DNA of 64,000 nt from Octopus vulgaris (Eukaryota): NCBI GenBank assembly GCA_951406725.2, contig OX597838.1, positions 9,858,001-9,922,000 on the forward strand, in the 5' to 3' direction. Shown one piece after another: positions 1 to 64,000 of this stretch. The position numbers and the translations under genes were made by a program. The notes under the pieces are model-generated. The model searched no databases. It was not told where the DNA came from and saw only the letters and a program-made list of their open reading frames with translations. The stretch's first letter is position 1. Every line of letters starts with the position of its first letter.

Positions 1-262
1 GATATAATCGGCTTAATCCATTTGTCTGTCCTTGTTTGTCCTCTCTGTGTTTAGCCCCTTGTGGGTAGTAAAGAAATACGTATTTCGTCTGCTGTTACGT
101 TCTGAGTTCAAATTCCGCCGAGGTCAACTTTGCCTTTCATCCTTTCGGGGTCGATAAATTAAGTACCAGTTACGCACAGGGGTCGATGTAATCGACTTAA
201 TCCGTTTGTCTGTCCTTGTTTGTCCCCTCTGTGTTTAGCCCCTTGTGGGTAGTAAGGAAATA
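1..262 (+). mobile_element. SINE family B, tandem 184-bp 3' units (starts before the window)
   Basis: Same sequence as 28579-28990 and 46505-46736; positions 1-78 repeat at 185-262; B-box-like GAGTTCAAATTCC at 105-117. Confidence 0.85.
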
Positions 263-544
263 GGTGTCATACAGGGACATGAACACACCAATACCAGTTG
301 TCAAGCAGTGGTGGGGGACAAACACAAAGACACACACACACACAGATATATACGTATCTATACAATGGGATTCTTTCAGTTTCCATAAACCATGTCCTCT
401 CACAAGGCTTTGGTCAGCCTGAGGCTATAGTAGAAAACACTTGCCCATGCAGTGGGACTGAACTCAGAACCATGCAGTTTGGAAGCAAGCTTCTTACGTG
501 GCTTCTACACAGCTATGCCTGCACTTTCTTTTCTTCTTTTTTTC

Positions 545-739
545 TTTTTTACTTGTTTCAGTCAATTGACTGCGGCCATGCTGGAGCACCGCCTTTAGTC
601 GAGCAAATCGACCCCGGGACTTATTCTTTGTAAGCCCAGTACTTATTCTATCGGTCTCTTTTGCCGACCCGCTGAATTACGGGGACGTAAACACACCAGC
701 ATCAGTTGTCAAGCAATGCTGGGGGGGGGGTGGCAAACA

Positions 740-780
<41 letters not shown>

Positions 781-954
781 GTACATATATACGACAGGCT
801 TCTTTCAGTTTCCGTCTACCAAATCCACTCACAAGGCATTGGTCGGCTCGGGGCTATAGCAGAAGACACTTGCCCAAGATGACACGCAGTGGGACTGAAC
901 CCAGAACCATGTGGTTGGTAAGCAAGCTACTTACCACACAGCCACTCCTGCGCC
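545..954 (-). mobile_element. tRNA-derived CORE-like SINE family A, full length
   Basis: Reverse complement of 3589-3989: A box TGGCTGTGTGG, B box GGTTCAGTCCC, CORE-like CTTGGGCAAGTG, internal (TA)/(TG) tract. An older partial copy lies at 268-525. Confidence 0.9.
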
Positions 955-1562
955 TATATACCCTACACTGATATATATATATTTTAAAAATCAATTGCAA
1001 ATTTAACTTTAAAAAAAAACTGGAAGTTGATTTCCAATCAATAAAAAAAAAAATATTCCATTTTCTTTCAGTGAAATTCATTTCCAGTTTAAATTTCAAT
1101 GTTATAGTCTCAACACACACACACACACACACTCTTTCCCACCTCCACGTCCATCACAATCCCTATAACCACAGCTCTGTTTTTGGAAAAAAAAAAAAAT
1201 TAAAGATTTATCAATTTGGAACATGCTTCATTTGGGAAAAAGAAATTAAGGAAATTTAATTATGGATCGACTCGTGCCTTGTGAGTGGAATTTCAATGAC
1301 GGAAACTGCATAATGGACCCTTGTCATCTGTGTGTCTGCTGCTACCAGAAAACGAGACTGTGACTTCTCCTGTGATATTAATTTTTACTCTTGATAAATT
1401 ATGACGAGCAATCAAGACCCTCAAAATTCAAGAGCTGATTCAGATTGAAATAGGTTATCAAAATAATTAATTCAAATGAATTCATAATCTTCAAAAAGTT
1501 AATACTTGGTGGTTTCATGGTAAACATAAACATTACTGCTTATACATGCATTCATCCATCCA

Positions 1563-1605
<43 letters not shown>

Positions 1606-1616
1606 CTAAAATATAA

Positions 1617-1718
1617 TATAATAAATGCACAAAAAAATGGAAAACAGATACAGAAGGTCACCAAATCCCCATCAGTTATCAGCCAGAGGGTCAAACGCAA
1701 TTTCATGCCTTCAACAAT

Positions 1719-1817
<99 letters not shown>

Positions 1818-1890
1818 AGTGTGTGTATATATATAATAATAATAATAATAATATAAATAGTATGTATATATGTATATATATACATACATA

Positions 1891-1932
<42 letters not shown>

Positions 1933-2100
1933 TATATTTGTACAGGACGTCACCAACTGTTTAAACATGAAGTATGAAAACAAATGAGTTAAATACGCAA
2001 ACGAGAGAAAAAATGTAAAACAGTACAAGCTAACATGGAGAACGACCCTTCATCAGTTGTCTGCTAGCTACTTCTCATTTTGAGCATTCAACGACAATAT
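1617..2100 (-). mobile_element. Two short retroelement-end fragments (1617-1720, 1940-2100) with degenerate hammerhead-like cores, embedded in (TA)n
   Basis: Minus strand reads TTGTCG..GCTC(A)AAATGAG..GACAA-CTGATGA and TTGTTG..GAAA..TGATAA-CTGATGG, each followed by a T-rich tail. Confidence 0.5.
1721..1813. repeat. (TA)n microsatellite; other long (TA)n tracts at 16925-17107, 25550-25872, 38955-39062, 59511-59622
   Basis: Direct inspection. Confidence 0.98.
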
Positions 2101-2287
2101 ATATATTTATATGGATGGATGGATGGATGGACGGCAAGACAGATACGGAGGTAGTTAGATATGCATATATATGTGCATATGTGTGTGAGAGATATATGCA
2201 TGTATGTATATATGTATGTGTGAGTGTATATGTATATTCAAATATGCATATTAAGTTCATGTATGCTTATATATGATCATCATCAAA

Positions 2288-2515
2288 GGCGGCGAGTGGC
2301 AGAAATGTTAGCGTGCCGGGCGAAATGCTAAGCGGTATTTCGTCTGTTGTTACGTTCTGAGTTCAAATTCCGCCGAGGTCGACTTTGCCTTTCATCCCCT
2401 TGGGGTCAATAAATAAAGTACCAGTTTCCCACTGGGGTCAATATAATCGACTTCATCCATTTGTCTGTCCTTGTTTGTTCCCCTCTGTTTAGCCCCTTGT
2501 GGGTTGTAAAGAAAT
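2288..2515 (+). mobile_element. SINE family B monomer
   Basis: Head GGCGGCGAG(C)TGGCAGAA, B-box-like GAGTTCAAATTCC, body GCCTTTCATCC..GGGGTC, ends in AAAGAAATA. Confidence 0.85.
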
Positions 2516-2523
2516 ATATATAT

Positions 2524-2567
<44 letters not shown>

Positions 2568-3588
2568 TTATGGCATCCAGGAGTCAGCAAACCAGAGGAC
2601 TGCACCAATCTCCAGTGCCTTTTTGACATGGTTTCTAAGGCTGGATGCTCTACACACACACACATATATGTATGCATGTGTATGAGTGTCTTTGCAGATA
2701 TGTGTGTATGTGTGTGTATATCAAGTTCCATACATTTGCATCAAAATGTGACTTAGCCTTTCAAGAAATGAAAACAACAGAATAAGCACCACATTGAATA
2801 AGTACTGATGTTGCCTGATATTACCAAGTAAAATCCTTGAAGGAACTTTGCTCCAGCATGGCCGTTGTCCAGTGGTTGAAACCAATAAAAGGACAGCAGA
2901 ACCTAAAAGAGAAAAAAAAACAAATCCCAGAATTAGAATATTATACAGAGAGAGAGGAATAGCTCAGAAAAGACATTAAACTGAGAGAGAAAGAAAGAAT
3001 GTGAAAGTAGAGAGGGGGGAAGAGAGAGAGTTAGCGTGAGAAGGGGAGGAGGAGGGGAAAGGGAGGGGTGGTTGGCAGAGAGAGAGAAAATATATTCTAT
3101 GCATAATAAAAGTGTGATGTGTCTTAGAAGACAACTTGTTGCAATGAGGATTTGATACAGGACACGACACGCTCTTCCTCTTCATTGAAACAGACAGCTG
3201 AAGCGAAAAAAATGTTTTTTTTTGTTCTATATTGTTTGATTCGGATTATATTGGTGACAGCTGACATGAAAGGCAGACTTTGTTATCAAAATCTCCACTA
3301 CTTTCCAACAAATCGAGTAACTTGTGGTATATTTATTTACAAGACAATATCAAATAGAATTATAATGAGAATTGTTTGGTGTTTTTTTTTGGGGTTTTTT
3401 TTTGGTTTTTACAACTCTTCCCATGGTTTTGCAATAACTTCAACTGCAAGATAATCCAGACAAATCCTAATCCTAATGATTACTGACTTTCCCACAGAAT
3501 AAAAGTACCAGATGTCGACACACACACATAAAATATAAAAATAATTTTTTCACGTCATTTGAGATGTTTTCATAAGTAAAATCATATA

Positions 3589-3989
3589 GGCGCAGGAGTG
3601 GTTGTGTGGTAAGTAGCTTGCTAACCAGCCACGTGGTTCCGGGTTCAGTCCCACTGCGTGGCATCTTGGGCAGGTGTCTTCTGCTATAGCTCCGGGCCGA
3701 CCAATGCCTTGTGAGTGGATTTGGTAGACAGAAACTGAAAGAAGCCTGTCGTATATATATATATATATGTGTGTGTGCATATGTTTGTGTGTCTGTGTTT
3801 GTCCCCTAGCATTGCTTGACAACCGATGCTGGTGTGTTTATGTCCCCGTCACTTAGCGGTTCGGCAAAAGAGACCGATAGAATAAGTACTGGGCTTACAA
3901 AGAATAAGTCCCGGGGTCGATTTGCTCGATTAAAGGTGGTGCTCCAGCATGGCCGCAGTCAAATGACTGAAACAAGTAAAAGAGTAAAA
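3589..3989 (+). mobile_element. SINE family A, full length
   Basis: Pol III A/B boxes, CORE-like segment, GTAAAAGA tail; flanked by direct repeat GTAAAATCATATA (TSD). A truncated head follows at 3999-4150. Confidence 0.92.
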
Positions 3990-5324
3990 TCATATACAGG
4001 TGTAGGTGTGACTGTTTGGTAAGAAGCTTGCTTCCCAACTTCATGGTCCTGGGTTCAGTCCCACTGTGTGGCATCTTGGGCAAGTGACTGCTACTATAGC
4101 CCCGGGCTGACCAAAGCTTTGTGAGTTGATTTGATAGGTGAAAACTTCCAAACACCAACCACTTGACCGTGTGGATTGGATGCACCAGCACTAGCAGAGT
4201 CATCAAGTAATTTGGAAGGAAAAAATTCTTTGAGAGGCAGTCATTGGAGCAGGTGGTCTTGTGCCAGGTGATGAGAGGTTAGAGTGTCAGAGGGGGATAA
4301 AATGCATTCATATTGATATATCCTTCTCTTCTTATTCTTCCATTTTTCTCACCACCTTTGAACAAACCTACTTTCTCGTTAGCTTCTTTCATATTTTTCC
4401 CTCGCTAACAATGGCCAGATAAAACAACAACTGCGCTGAAACCATGGAAAACAAAAATCAAGAAACAAACGAAAAGCACCAAATCACCACAACCATGTTG
4501 TTGCTGTTGTTGTTGATGTTGTTGTTTTACCACATAAGACAGCAAGAGAGAAAAAGAAAGACTGAGGGGAGAAGAGTCTGAATATTTATATTTTACGTTT
4601 CTTTTTTTTCTTTCTTTCTTTCTTGACGTCCCAAAAAAGGAATTTTACATGAATTATTTACTAAAGCCTTATCAATAGCAATACTTTTCTTACACTGGCT
4701 CAAGGCCATGAATTTGAGAGACAACTAGGCAAGGAGATAAGAGGGTTTTATACTGGACCGAGATTCCAACTCAGTCAAAAATGACTGCTGTGTATTTTGC
4801 CGGTCATGAAAAATGATTTTTATTTAGCAAATTTAAAAAAAACAAAACAAAAAAAAAACATTTTTACAGGAAGAAAAGAAAGAAAGAAAAAATTACAAGT
4901 ATTAAAGATCAAATTACTGAGAAAAAAGAATAAAATCAACTACCTCACCAAAGAAACGAAGAAAAGGAAAAAAAAAAAGGGAGTGGATTTAAGCTGCAGA
5001 AGATCGTGGGTGGAGAGGTAACAGGTTGTACATCCCAGACTAAATGGCATGATTAATTACACCTTGCAATCATGAGTGCAAAGGTGTTGTTGCAGAAAAT
5101 AGCCAGTGACACTCACTGCAACAGTCACCCCACCTTGTGGGATTCATTTCTAAGGTGGGCCACAGTAAAAGGTTCGAAAACGCATGACACCTTGAAGGCA
5201 GGTGATACAAATGGATAGCAGCGGATCAGGTTCCTGTATTTAGATAATTTTTGAATAGAAAATTTCAATCATTAAACTAAGGATAGTCTCAGGTGTGTTG
5301 GTAACAAAAGGTGGGTTAGTACTT

Positions 5325-5690
5325 CTTTTACCTGTTTCATTCATTAGTCTGCAGCCGTGAAGAACTTTTAGTCAAATGAATCAACCCCCCAGTGCTTGTT
5401 TTACTGAAGCCTGGTAGTTACTTTATTTGTCACTATTGCTGAACTGCTATGTTACAAGGATGTGAACATACCACCATCAGTTGTCGAGTATTGGTGGGGG
5501 ACAAATGCAGGTGCAAAGACACACACACACACACACAACAGGCTTCTTTCAGACTCCGTCTACCAAATGCACTTACAAGGCTTTGGTCAACCCGAGGCTA
5601 CAGCAGAAGACATTTTCCCAAGGTATCATGCAGTGGGATTGAACCTGGAACCATGTGGTTGGGAAGCAAACTTTTTAACCACACAGCCTT
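5325..5690 (-). mobile_element. Older diverged SINE family A copy
   Basis: Colinear with family A with many substitutions. Similar old or partial copies at 14390-14640, 15220-15380, 20866-21025, 29650-30110, 31295-31550, 33200-33640, 38408-38690, 39585-39740, 44128-44285 and 55880-56170. Confidence 0.8.
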
Positions 5691-5737
5691 GTGAGGTTTA
5701 GCAGTAGGAAATCCATATTTCATATCTAGTTGTTTAA

Positions 5738-5960
5738 CCCTTTTGATACCAACCCACCTGGGACTCCCTAAGGTCATATGATACATGGAACCTGTTCTAT
5801 AGTGATCTAAATTAGGAATCTTCCATTAAAATTTCCCATCAATTTATGTTCCAAACATCAGCTTAAGAATAGCAGACTTAGCTTACCAAATTCTTCATTA
5901 TTTTCAAAATTCATTGAAACAAAGGCAACATATTTCAACAGAAATATGGCAACAAAAGGG
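5738..5960. mobile_element. piggyBac-like MITE
   Basis: TTAA|CCCTTTTG ... CAAAAGGG|TTTT termini; an inverted diverged copy at ~7760-7970 ends AAAAAGGTTAA. Confidence 0.6.
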
Positions 5961-7353
5961 TTTTAAAACATCAAAGAATTAATATTCAGTCTTTTGATTG
6001 AAAATATTTTTAGTGAAATTCAATCATTTTATGTAAAGTATTATGCCTTCTCACCTTTTCATAGAAATCAATCACAAAAAATGTTCACTTTCTGGGTTGA
6101 AGACCTCATCCATCATCCAGACGAACACCACTGTCTGATAATTTTGTTGCCTTTCGCAGACAAGCAAAAGATAAAAGAGGGAGCTACACAGCAAATAAAA
6201 TTTTTAAATAACGTTTGGTTGTGGGTTGTGTCTAGGGAGAGTCATTATGCCAAAAAGTTCAACAATGTATTTTACTGCAGAAAAAAAAATTAAATAACAA
6301 GCATTTGAATTTGGTGAGTCCATTCCTCACCAGGTCTGACATCGAGTGATTTCTTCCAGAAAGAGAAGAATCAACATATTACTTGAGTGGTAGTCTATAT
6401 ATCAATTCCTACCCCAAAGAACTAAAAGCATGGACCTCGGCAGGATTTGAACTCAGCATTATAGAGATGAATGTACAAGACACTCTAGCCAATGCTTTAT
6501 TGATTTCCCCCAATTCCCAATTATAGTCAGTCGATTTAATCGTTTCTTGTGTATTATTAATACTTCCTTGGTCAATTCAGGAAGAATGACTAGCAAAGTT
6601 GATCATGTTGGGATTTGAACACAGAGCATAAGGTGTATGTTTAAAAGAGTCTCTTCAGAAATTACATGGTATTGAGTTCCATTCCCATTGCTCCGAATAT
6701 TACCATGGGCAAGCGTCTTCTACTAGAGCTTCAGGTCTTGAGTGAATTTTGGTTGTTGTTCTTCTTTGTCTTCCTCTCATCTGCCTCTTCAAATTTCGTC
6801 CCAGTTTAATCCTGATTGATCAGAATTACAATCAAAGTTATTCCAACCATAACCATCCTGTCTTTTTACATGTCAAGGAACTATATTGTCTTCAGGTCTT
6901 TTCTTTTTTAAAGGATGCGATTTTGACAAGTGTTGGCTCTGATTTGCAGCAGGTCAGCCAACCAAGTAATGCCACCTTTGGTGGTTCATAAAATTTCATG
7001 ACATTTGGTAAGAGGAAACTGTCCATCATTTCTGTTCTTGGGCAACAGATTTTAGTTTGCCATCAAGTTAGACACCACCACAGGGTCCCTGGTTGGCTTG
7101 ATCAGATTCCAGTCAGTTGAAAGCATTTGTATCAGGTCTTGTGTATGAAGCTAACTTCCTTCCTCGCTTCCATCAGCCTTGGGTGCTCTGAAAATGGTCA
7201 TGAATGTTATTTTTGATCAATAAAAAGCAAGAAATCATTATAAACAACAGAAGAAAGAAAAACAGTTGTGAGTTCAATACAAATGCCAACTTGACACGGA
7301 TAAGACCATCAGAAGCTGCAATATGAAGAGTGTTCAAGAGAATAACAATACTA

Positions 7354-55891: not shown

Positions 55892-56478
55892 TGAATTGAC
55901 CCCAGAATTTATTTTTTAAAGCCTGGTGCTTAATCTATTGGTGTCTTTTGCTGAACCACTAAATTATGGCGATGTAAACTCACCAGTTGTCATGTTGAGG
56001 TGGGGGACAAACACACACACACACACACAGGTGTGGCTGTGTGGTAAGAAACTTGCTTCCCAACCGCATGGTTCTGGGTTCAGTCCTACTGGGTAAGTGT
56101 CTTCTACTACAGCCTCAGGCTGACCAAAGCCTTATGAGTGAATTTGGTAGACAGAAACTGAAAGAAGCCCATTGTGTCATCATCATCATCATCATCGTTT
56201 AACATCCGCTTTCCATGCTAGCATGGGTTGGACGATTTGACTGAGAACTGGCAAACCAGATGGCTGCACCAGACTCCAATCTGATCTGGTGCAGGCATCT
56301 GGTTTGCCAGTCCTCAGATGGCTTGTGTGTGTGTGTGTGTGTGTGTGTCTGTTTGTTCCTCCACATCCCCTTCATCATTTGACAACTGACGTTGGTGTGA
56401 TGTTGGTGTGTTGGTGTGCAAAAGGGACCCATAGAATAAGTACACACACACACACACATACACACACACACACACATA

Positions 56479-56591
<113 letters not shown>

Positions 56592-56914
56592 TATGCTAAA
56601 AAGCAGTGCATAGTGCCAGAATTTTCAGCTCTAGTCCGATCGTTTTTAGAGTATCTGCATAAGTGGAGCTTCAACCTGCCAGTCTGTACCATTGTTGAGT
56701 TATACAAGATTCTATAATGAAGTTACACCAAGTAGTGATTCTTCAAAATCATTCAATAGGTAAGTTCTGGGTTGGTGAAATACACAATAGGAAATGCATC
56801 CATTACATAAACCTTTCTACCATAGCTCCAGGCTATCCAAAGCCTTACAAGTGGAATTGGTAGATGAAAAGTGATAAAAGCCTATCCTCTGTGTGTATGT
56901 GTGTGAGAGAGAGA

Positions 56915-56949
<35 letters not shown>

Positions 56950-57238
56950 TAAGAGAGAGAGAGACAGAGAGAGAGGGCACGTGTTAATGTCTTATCTTGA
57001 TGTTGCTGAATATTGGTAAAAATGGTTCTCACTATCATAAGACAAGGTCATTCATTCCCCAGTATTCTGTGAGAGCATGTCTGGCAATGGAAAAATACAA
57101 TATAACCTTGCTTGGAGAAAGGTGAGGGTTGGCAACAGGAAAAGCATAGAAAAAGCTGCCTCAAAAACTAACCCATGCAAGCATGGGGAAGACATTAAAA
57201 TCATGATGCGTGCGTGTGTGCGTGTGTGTGTGTGTATG

Positions 57239-57365
<127 letters not shown>

Positions 57366-57756
57366 ACACACACACACATATATATATATACATATATATA
57401 TATATATCAATTTTCAAATGGAAATTGTAGTTGTGATAGCTATGCCGGTGGCACGTAAAAAGCACCAACCAATTGTGGCCGCCGCCAGCCTCCCCTGGTA
57501 CCTGTGCCGGTGTCACGTAAAAAGCTCCCACTACACTCACGGAGTGGTTGGCTTTAGGAAGGGCATCCAGCTGTAGAAACACTGCCAGATCAGACTGGAG
57601 CCTGGTGCAGCCTCCTGGCTTCCCAGACCCCGGTTGAACCATCCAACCCATGCTAGCATGGAAAACGGACATTAAACGATGATGATGATGATGATGATGA
57701 TGTCAGTAAATCCCAAATCTGAAAGAGAAGCACATTCTAAGTTATGGAGAAGTAGA

Positions 57757-58056
57757 GTAATTAGATAAAGATAGTTATGGCTGGTCTGTCGGGTTACCCT
57801 AGGTTTCATGTCCTTAAAGTGCTTAGCTTTATGGCATTTCTACAGACTCTAATTGCCGGTGGCCTATAATCTCTCTTTATTCCTTTGCCCATGCATTCAA
57901 CAAGTAGCTACAAGGTCTTTTCTCCCTCCACTTTAATGAGAGGTCAAAGGCCACTGGCCGTTGGGGTCTGAAGAAACACTGTAAAGCTAAGCGCTTTATG
58001 GACGTGAAATCCAGAGTAATCCCATAGACAAGTCATAACTGTCATTATTTAATTAC
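57757..58056 (+). repeat. Long imperfect inverted repeat (119-bp arms, 62-nt loop); MITE or hairpin RNA
   Basis: 57757-57875 aligns without gaps to the reverse complement of 57938-58056. Confidence 0.85.
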
Positions 58057-58320
58057 ACACACACATCATCATCATCATCATCGTCGTCGTCTAACGTCTG
58101 TTTTCCGTGCTAGCACGGGTTGGATGGTTCAACCGGGGTCTGGGAAGCCAGGGCTGCACCAGGCTCCAGTCTGATCTGGCAATGTTTTTACGGCTGGATG
58201 CCCTTCCTAACGCCAACCACTCTGCGAGTGTAGTGGGTGCTTTTTACATGCCACCGGCACAGGTGCCAGGGGAGGCTGGCAGCAGCCACGATAGGTTGGT
58301 GCTTTTAATGTGCCACACAA

Positions 58321-58359
<39 letters not shown>

Positions 58360-58360
<1 letters not shown>

Positions 58361-58480
58361 GGAAGGTTGGTTGTTATGGTTGGTCAGAGAGTGACTATTG
58401 GTTTTGCACATATAAAGTGCTTAATTTATGTGTAAAAACCAATGGTCACTCTCTGACTGGCCATAACAGTCAACCTTCTA
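58360..58480 (+). repeat. ~53-bp-stem hairpin (pre-miRNA-like or small MITE)
   Basis: 58360-58412 pairs with 58427-58480; only G-U wobbles and one bulge. Confidence 0.85.
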
Positions 58481-58756
58481 AATATATTACTGCTCTAATG
58501 GTTCAGATTGCTGTGGGGTTGGAAGAATGGACTGGCCAAACTCTTACAAAGAGTAGTGTATTGGTTGAGATGAGAGAGGTCATAGGAGTCGTTGAGAATT
58601 TATGGAAGTCGCAGGAAGTCATTGAGATTGTTGAGAGTTTGTATTTATTGGAGTATCATGTTTAGTGGAGTAATTTGAAGTATGTCGTGTGAAGACAGAT
58701 GTGTCTATCCCTGCTTCAGGAAATCTGTATGTCCAACTTATAGAAGGATATAAAAA

Positions 58757-59125
58757 TGGCGATGAGGATGTCCACTTATAAAAGTGGTGATGAGTTTATT
58801 CGGAGCTTATGTCAGATGTTGACATTTTCTTTGGATACAAAATCAAAGAAAAATTAGTTAACATGGAAGACTTTATTAGTCTCCATGGTGCAGCTGCAAC
58901 AGCAAAACAATACCAACAGTTGCTGGAATTAATGCTGAAGTCCAAACGCAATTACAGCCCAGAAAAAGGTAGAACTTTTTCTGCATATTTCTGAAGATAT
59001 GAAGAAATCTTCAAAGAGGAATACGAAAATTGAACGGACAACAAAAAGGTATGACTACTTTTAAGAAAATTATCCCCAGCTGAACATGAAAAATACTATA
59101 ACAACTTTCTGCCCCCACCCAAAAA
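58757..59125 (+). mobile_element. Ty3/Gypsy (Mag-like) LTR retrotransposon remnant: PBS-like site and gag pseudogene
   Basis: TGGCGATGAGG PBS-like at 58757 (echoed near 58785); translation YSPEKGRTFSAYF*RYEEIFKEEYEN*TDNKKV*LLLRKLSPAEHEKY. 58490-58750 may be LTR. Confidence 0.8.
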
Positions 59126-59264
59126 CCTTTCCAGACAGACAAGTATGCACAATATATGTATGTATGTATGTTATAGGCTTCTGTACAGTTTCCAACTGAC
59201 TTTAAAATTTCAATCCTTGGCAAAGTCATTGCCTGCATTTCCTTAGTATAAATAAATTTTATGC

Positions 59265-59302
<38 letters not shown>

Positions 59303-59506
59303 TATATATAAATGTGACCTCGTGTGTACCGTTGGGGATTTTTTTTTCCTCTGTCTTCCCTTCTCTGGATCTTTCCTTCTCCTATGTTTCCGACGAAAAG
59401 CTCCGCTCGAAACATTAAACCCTCCTTCTTTCCTGAGCGTCCAATAATACTATATTTGTTCCACGTCCTCGCGCTGTCGTGTTTTTTTGTGCTTTCTTGT
59501 TTGGAT

Positions 59507-59629
<123 letters not shown>

Positions 59630-59645
59630 GTGTATATGTATATAT

Positions 59646-59709
<64 letters not shown>

Positions 59710-60323
59710 ATGTATATATATATTTACATATATATTAAGTTAATGTTTGAATGTAAAGCATTATGTATGTATTAATACATGTGTGAATGAGTATATATAT
59801 GATGCTTGTATATGTATGTATATCTATTTATATAGATATAATATACACTCACATATATATAACATGCACACAAAAACACATCATCGTCTAACGTCTGCCT
59901 TCCATGCTGGCATGGGTACACACACACACACACACACACACCCACGCACGCAGGTGCGCACGCACACACACACACGCACACACACACACACACTCGTGTA
60001 CATATTGAAATAACCATAGAAGTCCATATACATTAACAACAGTGCACCAAAATGAAAGAAAAATGCTAAAAGGTGAGCCAAGTGAAAATTAACTCACATC
60101 TCACCAAGGTAACAGCTTCTGATTAATCTGCAAGATGAACTTTTAACACCTGTATTTAGAGTGGCTTTTGATGTTATTAACGAAGTGTGACAACACATGT
60201 GGATGACTCTGTGTGTGGGTGGGTGGGTGTGATTTTTAAGCCTTATAAAGACATCAAGAAAGAAATTCGGTATGTTATGTAGAGTAAATAAAAGTATTAC
60301 TAATAATAATAATAATAACGATG

Positions 60324-60366
<43 letters not shown>

Positions 60367-60395
60367 CAATAATAATAATAATAATGATAATAATG

Positions 60396-60427
<32 letters not shown>

Positions 60428-60448
60428 AACAACAACAACAACAACAAC

Positions 60449-60489
<41 letters not shown>

Positions 60490-60491
60490 TA

Positions 60492-60524
<33 letters not shown>

Positions 60525-60590
60525 CCTCTCTACTATAGGCATAAGGCCTGAAATTTTGGGGTAGGGAACTAGTCGCTTGCATTGACCTCA

Positions 60591-60761
<171 letters not shown>

Positions 60762-61647
60762 GTCTCAAATTTTGGTACAAGGCTGGCAAGTCTGGGGAGG
60801 GATTAAGTTGATTATATTGACCCTGAAAGGCTGGAAGGCAAAATCAACCTCAGGGGTAATTTGAACTCAGAATGTAAAGACAGACAAAATACCACTAAGC
60901 ATTTTGCTCAGTGTGCTACCGATTCTGCCAGCTTGCTGCATTAATAATAATAGTAAGTCATCAGAGAAAGTTCAGAGCTTAAAAAGTGAAAGCATTTTGA
61001 ATTAGAAAAAGAAATTAAAAATCAACAGATGGCAAAAAACTTCTCGTGGGTCATTGTGTGTATGTGTGTGTGTGTAAGTCAGAAATGCATCTGGTACTCT
61101 CACTGGCTGCTGATGGGATGAATTTTTGTCTTTTTCTGATATTTGTGTTTTTCACACCGCGAGTCCATAAGAGATGTTATCTCTGGATAAATACTGCAGT
61201 AACTGGCCTACCAATAACGTACTTACATAAAGTGTGACACATAGATGACTATTTTAATGATATACTGTTTCAATTGCTTTACCATATATACACCCACCCA
61301 CACATACATAGGAATACATTCAAACATATATACATATGTATTTTAGATTATTAAAAACAAACTAGGCCATCTGCCTTTTAAATGGAAAATGATATAAAGT
61401 AAATAGATCTTGTTACTTAGATACAGATTTTGTGGTATTAAGTTGCCAAGTAATGAGTCTCCACCTGGAGCAAATGCAAATTTATCTCAGGTAATATTCT
61501 GAGATAACTTCCTTCTTCTTTCTGGCAATCATGTTAAATGAGCAGAGAAAATGAACTGTGTTTCCCAAATAACGAATAAAACACCTGTAATGTATTTGAA
61601 CTAAACACTTATGAGCTTTTAGACTAGATACTATGTCTGATTATTTA

Positions 61648-62729
61648 CAAAGTGGTATCAAAAAGTTCCAGGACTAATTTAATAAAAAAATAACTAATTT
61701 ACCTAAGTTTTAAGATCATCTCCTTTGAAATAGTTACCTTGTGCAGCAATGCACTGGTCCTTCCACTTTTGTAATTTGGTCTGGAAGTCAATTTCCATGA
61801 GTAAGTTAAGGGCCTTCTGTGATTCACTCTGGATCTTGACAACAGTGTTAAAATGATGACCTTTGAGCTGCATTTTCATCTTGGGGAAGAGATGGAAGTC
61901 TACAGGTGCTAAATTTGGTGATTAGGGTAGGTGTGGAAGCAATACCTATTTCTTTACTACCCACAAGGGGCTACACACAGAGGGGACAAACAAGGACACA
62001 GACAAAGGGATTAAGTCGATTACATCGACCCAGTGCATAACTGGTACTTTATTTATCGACCCCAAAAGGATGAAAGTCAAAGTCGACCTCGGCGGAATTT
62101 GAACTCAGAACGTAACAGCAGACGAAATACGGTTACGCATTTCGCCCAGCGAGCTAATGTTTCTGCCAGCTCGTCACTTTGGTGAGAAACTCATGAGTGA
62201 GGAGAGCTCAGTGAAGAATCCAATTCTTTGCACTCTACAGATCTGGTTGCTTTCACCAAATTTCCTCACTCAAATGCGCCAAAATGTTGTAGAACTCTCA
62301 GTTGATGGTCTGGCCCTGGAGAATGAATTCTCAATGCACAATACCACATTTCTTGTGGTGACACTTGTCACGGGTCTTCCCTATCGCAGGTTTTTCCACT
62401 TTTGAAGCACCGATGCCACACGAAGCATTGTGTATGACCCATTGCCTCATTACTGTAAGCTTGCTGAAACATACTCAATGCGTCAGTAGCAGACTTCCTA
62501 AGTTTAATGCAAAATTTCATGTTGGCTCTTTGTTCCTTCATGACAAAATCACAAACTACAGCATACATGGGATCACAAAAAGACAAATTTCACAACTTGT
62601 GAAGTAAACACAGCAGTGTCACTCAGCACACTGCCTCAATCACTGCTAGCTCTCACTGCACATGCAACCATGTGCTGCCATCTGTTGGCATGCTATAGAA
62701 CTAGTCCAGGAACTTTTGATACCACCTCA
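61648..62729 (-). mobile_element. Degenerate mariner transposon interrupted by SINE B
   Basis: TIRs GTGGTATCAAAAAGTTCCAGGACTA / TAGTCCAGGAACTTTTGATACCAC; N-terminus KEQRANMKFCIKLRKSATDALSMFQQAY; C-terminus DQCIAAQGNYFKGD. Confidence 0.92.
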
Positions 62730-62813
62730 TTTATGTTATTTCAGATTTTGCATGTCTAAGAACTGATCAGCAAATAATTCATTCGCTGAAAATATAAACA
62801 AAGTCACTGGCCT

Positions 62814-62856
62814 GTTTGGCTGATGAGAAACATATTGAAACACCAGTGTTCCAGAA
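62814..62856 (+). ncRNA. Type I hammerhead ribozyme motif, unit 1 (damaged copies at 63563-63593 and 63872-63914)
   Basis: TTTGG-CTGATGA-gaaacatatt-GAAA-CACcaGTG-T-T-CCAGA. Confidence 0.75.
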
Positions 62857-63097
62857 TGCCTTGCAATGAGCTGAATGTGTCCAGAACATACTGTCCTTGT
62901 AAAAGGCAGAAGAGCTGTTCTGTGACATACACGACAGCAACCAGTATATTTTGCATCTGAACCTGCCTTGACATATTACAAACAAATATGCAAATTTTAA
63001 TTTTAAATCTTGCTGTACATGGTACAAATAATGATCTTTGCTTTTGTCTGTTGGTAGATATAAGCACCAAACAGAAAACAATTTATTTGCTGAAATA

Positions 63098-63516
63098 GGC
63101 GCAGGAGTGGCTGTGTGGTAAGTAGCTTTCTTACCAACCACATGGTTCCGGGTTCAGTCCCACTGCGTGGCACCTTGGGCAAGTGTCTTCTGCTATAGCC
63201 TCGGGCCGACCAATGCCTTGTGAGTGGATTTGGTAGACGGAAACTGAGAGAAGCCCGTCGTATATATGTATTAATATATATGTATGTGCGTGTATATGTT
63301 TGTGTGTCTGTGTTTGTACCCCCTAGCATTGCTTGACAACCGATGCTGGTGTGTTTACGTCCCCGTCACTTAGCGGTTTGGCAAAAGAGACCGATAGAAT
63401 AAGTACTGGGCTTACAAAGGATAAGTCCTGGGGTCGATTTGCTCGACTAAAGGTGGTGCTCCAGCATGGCCGCAGTCAAATGACTGAAACAAGTAAAAGA
63501 GTAAAAAAGAGTAAGA
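63098..63516 (+). mobile_element. SINE family A, full length, inserted in the tandem array
   Basis: Colinear with family A; array sequence CTGAAA|GTATAAA resumes on both sides. Confidence 0.93.
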
Positions 63517-64000
63517 GTATAAACAAAGCTACCGGCTTGTTTAGGTTCAAAGATCTGAGTACTTCTGGCTGATGAAATACTGGTGTCCCAGAATCCTTTG
63601 TACCAAGACACTTTGTTAAAAGCACTTTGTCATTGTAAAAGAGAGAAGCTGTCCTGTGATATATACAACAGCAACCAGCATATTTTGTGTTCAAACCTGC
63701 CTTGACATGTTGTGAATAGATATGCAAATAATCATTTGAGATCTCGCTGTACACTGCAAATAGTGGGGGTTTTTTTGCTTGTTGGCAGATACAAGCACTA
63801 ACGGAAAATAATTTATTCACTGAAAGTATAAAGAAAGCCACTGGTTTGTTAAGGATTAAAGGTCTGGGTACTTCTAGCTGAGAAACAATATATCAAAACT
63901 CTATTGTCCAAGAATCCCTTGCACCAATGAGTCAAATGTGTTAAAAACCCACTGTCATTGTAAAAGGGAGAAGCTGTTCTGTGACATACACTAAATCTTT

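Follow-up and report, generated by a model that had tools for sequence, protein, structure and literature searches.

An extinct hammerhead repeat family of Octopus vulgaris, likely mobilised by the machinery of Penelope-like elements

What kind of element left the hammerhead motifs at the 3' end of this stretch of octopus DNA, and which enzyme copied it? The 64,000 nucleotides analysed here (the window) end in a broken four-copy array of an old, hammerhead-bearing repeat of ~330 bases. Published arguments on which enzyme copies animal retrozymes have so far relied on co-occurrence and on similarity of sequence, and the ends of insertions are an independent record. We conclude that the array belongs to a decayed, protein-free non-LTR retrozyme of ~330 nt with two fixed ends ~40 nt apart, likely inserted in trans by the reverse transcriptase and endonuclease of a Penelope-like element (PLE), a reading to which we assign a probability of about 0.8.

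The broken array and its genome-wide family

A sequence-only reading of the locus described three diverged head-to-tail units. Their homology stands, but there are four of them and they are not directly adjacent, as a 420-nt insertion (63096-63515) and two more further downstream interrupt the array (Table 1). Unit 3 is broken at 63993 by an insertion of ~490 nt with a flanking duplication of ~15 nt; unit 4, in the neighbouring DNA that we examined outside the window, is again split by an insertion, and the array stops ~1,070 nt past the window end. Pairwise identity among the units is 69-76%, and a DNA search of the 2.8-Gb genome showed them to be members of a genome-wide family; being homologous and part of such a family, they do not resemble each other by chance. 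Variants that are rare in the family are common to all four units, so the array goes back to one template lineage. The units were also found, with few differences, in contigs of three DNA-like runs labelled as three organisms, and their depth in these runs at 90% likeness was shallow, ~10^5 times lower than that of the SINEs, so that young near-identical copies are absent.

Table 1. Features of the array within the window (positions are those of the window).
Feature	Positions	Strand
Unit 1, family A monomer; ~24-27 nt deleted 5' of the ribozyme	62747-63048	+
Type I hammerhead of unit 1, degraded: stem III and the core boxes intact, stem II decayed, cut site reading GUU	62815-62856	+
ATGCAAAT in unit 1, directly 5' of the family's inner 3' terminus; promoter role unsupported	62988-62995	+
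Stretch of unit 1 between or just past both family 3' termini (~40-nt PLE-type tail)	62996-63048	+
Unit 2, opening 47 nt	63049-63095	+
Younger high-copy SINE-like insertion of 420 nt that splits unit 2; foreign to the element	63096-63515	+
Unit 2, rest	63516-63779	+
Hammerhead remnant of unit 2: stem I perfect, 15-nt deletion (stem II and part of the core)	63563-63593	+
ATGCAAAT in unit 2	63722-63729	+
Unit 3, initial two thirds; continues past the window	63780-63993	+
Hammerhead remnant of unit 3, core bases missing	63872-63914	+

In units 2 and 4 (63095 in the window and L031:2662), insertions from two distinct SINE-like families share one site in the monomer, directly behind base 47. At 62747-62750 (L031:746-749), runs X2 and X3 carry ~15 extra bases that include junction sequence; the 5' end of the array is therefore polymorphic, with a small deletion in the reference. 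An element of ~1.08 kb with terminal inverted repeats of ~28 nt, presumably mariner/Tc1-like, occupies 61648-62728 and stops 18 nt before the array.

The hammerhead motifs read from the letters are all present: CTGATGA at 62820-26 and GAAA at 62837-40 in unit 1, TTCTGG at 63563-68 with CCAGAA at 63588-93 in unit 2, and the remnant at 63872-63914 in unit 3. None of the four units retains an intact ribozyme, and the 15-nt deletion of unit 2 recurs in unit 4 outside the window. In line with this, the Rfam hammerhead model gave no match at E ≤ 10 in 62740-64000, and none was found in a search of 56000-64000. With all its ribozymes broken, the locus is now unable to yield circles, and it does not hold the two consecutive complete hammerheads on which the activity rule of Li et al. 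is based. The same model (RF00163, cut-off 34 bits) does accept natural copies elsewhere in the genome, with 34.1 bits for L028 and 34.8 bits for L117.

Searches of the genome by DNA similarity and by pattern gave 81 loci with 114 segments of what we call family A, with a consensus monomer of ~331 nt and 40% GC. Segments longer than 150 nt are on average 76% identical to this consensus (best 84%), and the exact intact core occurs at five places genome-wide, each at a separate locus. We estimate ~800 copies (230-6,500; biased low) from 28 genome matches to a 21-nt part that 2 of 57 units from the DNA search have retained. An Rfam search of the genome brought up a sister family, B, with a 334-nt consensus from 31 loci and 54 segments that is 72% identical to A. 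The retrozyme is old and decayed, with a mean identity to consensus of 76-78%.

In consensus A every part of a type I hammerhead is in place, with TTCTGG/CCAGAA as stem I, then CTGATGA, a stem II of 4 bp, GAAA, ACACCGGTGT as the palindrome and C as the cut-site base. The palindromic stem III had been deduced as ancestral from the array alone, and it is indeed the family consensus. Stem III of B is longer by 2 nt than that of A; its majority consensus is not exactly palindromic, and CpG decay suggests that it may once have been. Stem I has six pairs, and in three of them both bases differ between the families (UA/CG 35/22, UA/CG 25/24 and GC/AU 21/18), changes that represent one family split and not many events. 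A length filter left 69 hammerhead rows in the underlying alignment, 41 from the 67 units of A and 28 from the 31 of B, and many of the A rows came from a pattern search for stems III and I. In these 69 rows the number of both-side pair changes did not exceed the shuffle control (9 observed, 11 shuffled), while the cells paired and the covariation score did beat the shuffles (0/500). For both consensuses a branched circle is the predicted fold (z -3.2 and -6.5). A joint circular fold of A and B has 78 pairs, of which 10 are changed on both sides, 7 on one side and none broken, a count that leans towards structure because A and B themselves were the input to the prediction.

Head-to-tail passage across the monomer junction was seen in 43 family A copies, so what repeats is the ~330-nt monomer and nothing larger. 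It is a tandem non-coding unit with a single hammerhead each, at loci on many contigs and within the 170-400 nt range of retrozymes. No LTR, reading frame or flanking element common to the loci was found, and likeness among the upstream flanks is limited to inverted monomers or common SINEs. Judged by these sequence features, the repeat is an extinct family of the non-LTR retrozyme kind. The genome-wide consensus with its complete hammerhead, the compensatory stem I pairs and the Rfam-passing copy thus bear out the proposal of an ageing tandem, non-coding type I hammerhead retroelement with palindromic stem III. In runs X4, X5 and X13, which are RNA only by guess, the family appeared as few shallow contigs with short diverged fragments and there was no go-back joint among the joints listed; the array units were uncovered in X4. 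These observations speak neither for nor against expression.

The genome holds further hammerheads. A third type I family (L115-L142), unrelated to A and B, has a 4-bp stem I GTAC/GTAC, in some copies a long stem II insert, and often forms head-to-head inverted pairs. The genome's best Hammerhead_1 match, at L114:1501-1547 (45.5 bits), is a solitary canonical motif that does not resemble the repeat families and could be a conserved single-copy ribozyme.

The octamer and the proposed snRNA-type promoter

The exact octamer ATGCAAAT in units 1 and 2 had been read as a conserved, possible promoter element about 170-180 nt upstream of the next cleavage site. Both positions are right, and the octamer belongs to consensus A, but it is exact in 43 of 115 family A units and is lost in units 3 and 4. 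The distance holds only with the insertion removed, as the 420 nt that split unit 2 place the octamer of unit 1 ~590 nt from the next cut site. On the proposed reading, each unit would hold an snRNA-type promoter of octamer and proximal element and would be transcribed from within. Retention of the octamer in A is above average (rank 24 of 322 8-mers), but the word is CpG-free, and it is replaced in all units of family B (0/52). Its first four bases close a hairpin of the predicted fold that is kept in both families with compensatory change, and the octamer lies at the inner insertion end described below.

The U1, U2 and U5 genes of this genome sit in tandem clusters (L204-L253). Upstream of U1, of three U2 classes and of U5 stands a two-part motif of strict spacing, with ATCAGT between -57 and -61 and AATTAA ~32 nt before it, a distance counted by hand at these loci. 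The octamer itself is found at -42 to -44 in 14 of 15 U1 loci, most of them near-identical cluster copies, but within 400 nt upstream of none of the 15 U2 and 20 U5 genes. The bipartite host motif is missing from both consensuses: the best match in A has 3 mismatches in 12 positions, and that in B, which comes closer, has 2 mismatches at a spacing of 33. DNA upstream of U1 aligned to consensus A with p=0.023 but to B with p=0.81. Scoring of the sense strand by weight matrix was negative (p 0.27 and 0.55), although the matrix is a weak test, real U5 promoters also scoring poorly. ATCAGT stands at the junction in 9 of 43 A copies, but it alternates there with ATTGGT (7) and ATCGGT (3) as CpG decay would produce, and the ATCAGC sites form the two sides of a predicted RNA hairpin that is conserved. 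On balance, an internal snRNA-type promoter is not supported, and we consider it very improbable. The most striking part of the sequence-only reading thus fails, and the family is a fossil.

Newt satellite 2 (Coats et al. 1994, a study cited in PMC2220036) reportedly has a tandem unit of ~330 nt with a type I hammerhead and a palindromic stem III, and an snRNA-type promoter has reportedly been found in it. A and B are like the newt satellite in unit size, ribozyme type and stem III; they are unlike it in their short (1 to ~4 units), dispersed arrays and in the unsupported internal promoter.

Insertion ends and the likely copier

To locate where copies begin and end, we mapped segment ends on a four-fold tandem of the consensus. 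In zones that were set post hoc from the data, and at loci picked by similarity or pattern, 35 of the 114 family A segments had 3' ends at 280-295 (inner) and 33 at 316-329 or just past (outer), where 5.5 and 6.6 were expected; the homologous zones of family B held 18 and 16 of 54 3' ends (expected 2.9 and 3.2). The 5' ends are scattered and not enriched in the same zones, with 6 and 9 in A and 2 and 4 in B. The two 3' sites are ~40 nt apart in both families, and the array in the window itself terminates at the inner one. The DNA that follows inner ends scored 5.7 for likeness to the missing tail (background 5.9, true tails 16.2), and that following outer ends was no more like the next monomer than background. 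The bases after the ends are AT-rich (0.74 vs 0.63). In a set of 83 loci, 34 of 116 segments were more than one monomer long. Strand switches within loci were head-to-head in 23 of 23 cases and never tail-to-tail; among the 11 inversions with both outer points at the zones, 8 joined an inner and an outer end, 2 two outer ends and 1 two inner ends, an excess of mixed pairs that is weak if taken alone. Target-site duplications were not detected at 55 single-segment loci (mean longest shared word 5.7 vs 5.1 in shuffled pairs); the best shared flank word was a microsatellite, and the copies are old.

Two candidate signals for the ends were rejected. The tail as a conserved hairpin is unsupported, as A folds one (z -1.3, p 0.10) and B none, and the direct repeat TGCAAATAA that precedes both ends in A is not kept in B and so is not a general signal.

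These patterns closely match those published for endonuclease-bearing (EN+) PLEs. In its accessible text, Craig et al. 2021 (PMC8557442) names as features of PLEs copies truncated at the 5' end, partial tandems, an inverted copy next to the first and a tail of 30-40 nt, often at one end only, and that of Frangieh et al. 2024 (PMC11167929) shows in vitro a tail located between two internal start sites of reverse transcription, and AT-rich targets. Copies of A and B likewise have fixed 3' ends with an optional tail, variable 5' truncation and an inverted, 5'-truncated copy beside the 5' end, the tail often being one-sided. This agreement makes the PLE machinery the likely copier, and the insertion structure suggests that the repeat family was likely mobilised by it. 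The ends of family A also lie at or near T runs, which, along with the failure to find a partner among the sampled PLE families, would fit spread by another non-LTR retrotransposon (LINE/RTE type) or DNA-level amplification, with the ends reflecting T-tract priming or a nicking preference. We consider that course of events very improbable as well: a poly(A) or simple-repeat tail is absent, the ends are internal to the tandem unit, both end positions are retained in B despite changed local sequence, and head-to-head pairs with a single tailed arm fit the PLE description (PMC8557442, in its accessible text).

EN+ PLEs are abundant in the genome, with Neptune-type families found by a GIY-YIG search and a second clade of 11,743 candidates with a C-terminal endonuclease, a pattern that we take to be Hydra-like. 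Among the former, a young element (L096, L097, L108) is present in many almost identical copies with an intact frame of 781 aa; upstream it has a further frame of 330-380 aa, and CCAAT/TGACGT-like motifs recur in its downstream region. The second clade (L316-L321, L304-L315; C-terminal GIY-YIG) includes young families of 727 aa and 718 aa and an old decayed one, the ~1.1-kb 3' region of which ends soon after a sense-strand hammerhead motif. No homology to either A or B was seen at the ends of the sampled families, a sample confined to the Neptune type and the second clade and thus not extending to Naiad, Penelope/Poseidon proper or other clades.

The monomers could instead be terminal repeats, or tandem hammerhead repeats of the 3' region, of an extinct autonomous PLE with a frame that the searches did not reach, the copies then being truncated PLEs. 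The end pattern is exactly PLE-like, and frames of the second clade match near six loci, with decayed fragments ~0.5-1.5 kb from the monomers at L157, L117, L201, L269 and L031 and 4 kb away at L273; at L201 and L269 they lie upstream on the same strand. However, the DNA between fragment and monomer is unrelated between loci (four of the six compared) and forms no common bridge, and the clade is very abundant. Long copies moreover run into another monomer, as in the 43 junction copies and in arrays of up to ~four units, and the PLE families examined bear hammerheads different from those of A and B. Eight Neptune-type frames had no match in the 83 and 29 loci, 12 extended 10-kb regions or the window, and a frame of reverse transcriptase and GIY-YIG joined to the repeat was not found in any of these. 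We think a truncated PLE unlikely, and prefer a separate retrozyme served by PLE proteins.

Known relatives and a possible mechanism

Animal non-LTR retrozymes, as covered in the accessible text of Cervera and de la Pena 2020 (PMC7229834), resemble A and B in the 170-400 nt non-coding tandem unit with ~40% GC, the type I hammerhead with short palindromic stem III, the highly paired predicted circle and the presence of PLEs in the same genome. Unlike those retrozymes, A and B are old and decayed and are known from genomic DNA. That source already reports non-LTR retrozymes in molluscs, and its main text, so far as accessible, makes no mention of octopus, cephalopods, tails or inverted copies. 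Vertebrate retrozymes have been described as non-autonomous PLE derivatives (Li, Clavereau and Pollet, bioRxiv 10.64898/2026.07.22.740005), and the likely PLE mobiliser is common to both cases; according to the accessible part of the preprint its evidence is co-occurrence and pseudo-LTR homology, whereas that for A and B is insertion structure, PLE homology not having been found. The word "tail" is absent from the accessible main text of that preprint. EN+ PLEs themselves share with A and B the truncation, tandems, inverted copy, 30-40 nt tail, AT-rich targets and a type I hammerhead upstream of the tail, and differ in that A and B have no reading frame and a unit of 330 nt (PMC8557442 and PMC11167929, accessible text). 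For Chlamys PLEs, most of which lack hammerheads, earlier work has described non-autonomous elements that insert head-to-tail (PMC8557442, accessible text), and the giant-squid annotation counts 235 Hammerhead_1 loci that its accessible text leaves undescribed (PMC6962438). No description of the family was known at the sequence-only stage, and the literature that we searched likewise holds no account of the A/B family or of a retrozyme tail; Repbase, Dfam and supplements, which may list cephalopod families, lay outside that search. A and B are an extinct family of a kind already known, and the PLE-type tail and inversion pattern is the point that the sequence-only reading missed.

The structure of the copies is consistent with the following course. 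Read-through tandem transcripts would be cut by the ribozyme into monomers, cleavage probably occurring as dimers via the palindromic stem III; PLE hammerheads with a short palindromic stem III are discussed in the accessible text of PMC4209133. The monomers could then circularise. A PLE protein would nick AT-rich DNA, and reverse transcription would start at one of two internal sites of the RNA, which lie ~150 and ~190 nt downstream of the cut, and might go on through as many as about four units. Often a second arm, inverted and truncated at its 5' end, would be added, primed from the other site, and the family would subsequently have become extinct and decayed. The more-than-unit copies do not prove a circular template, as a linear multimer or a later local duplication gives them as well.

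The array itself has a pattern that may bear on the template. Its ribozyme types alternate, with stem II present, deleted, present and deleted along the four units; the stem II deletion is common to units 2 and 4, and a 3-nt loop deletion to units 1 and 3. Overall identities are 69% for units 2 and 4, 74% for 1 and 3 and 76% for 2 and 3, the further shared variants form a mosaic, and the stem II deletion of units 2 and 4 is also found at loci L013 and L027. One could tentatively go further and see here a retrozyme that, with no detectable likeness to any PLE end of its genome, keeps the two-site PLE priming footprint across families 28% apart. This would be direct genomic evidence that PLE proteins mobilise retrozymes of animals in trans through recognition of an RNA structure and copy a circular template for more than a single turn; the alternation of stem II would then record two turns of a dimer circle with one dead ribozyme. 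We regard this extended reading as less likely than not.

The ends of A and B bear a tail of the kind that a PLE protein makes in vitro, and the two mapped ends lead to exact predictions for a priming assay. The mapping of ends can be transferred to the retrozymes of mussel, coral and amphibians.
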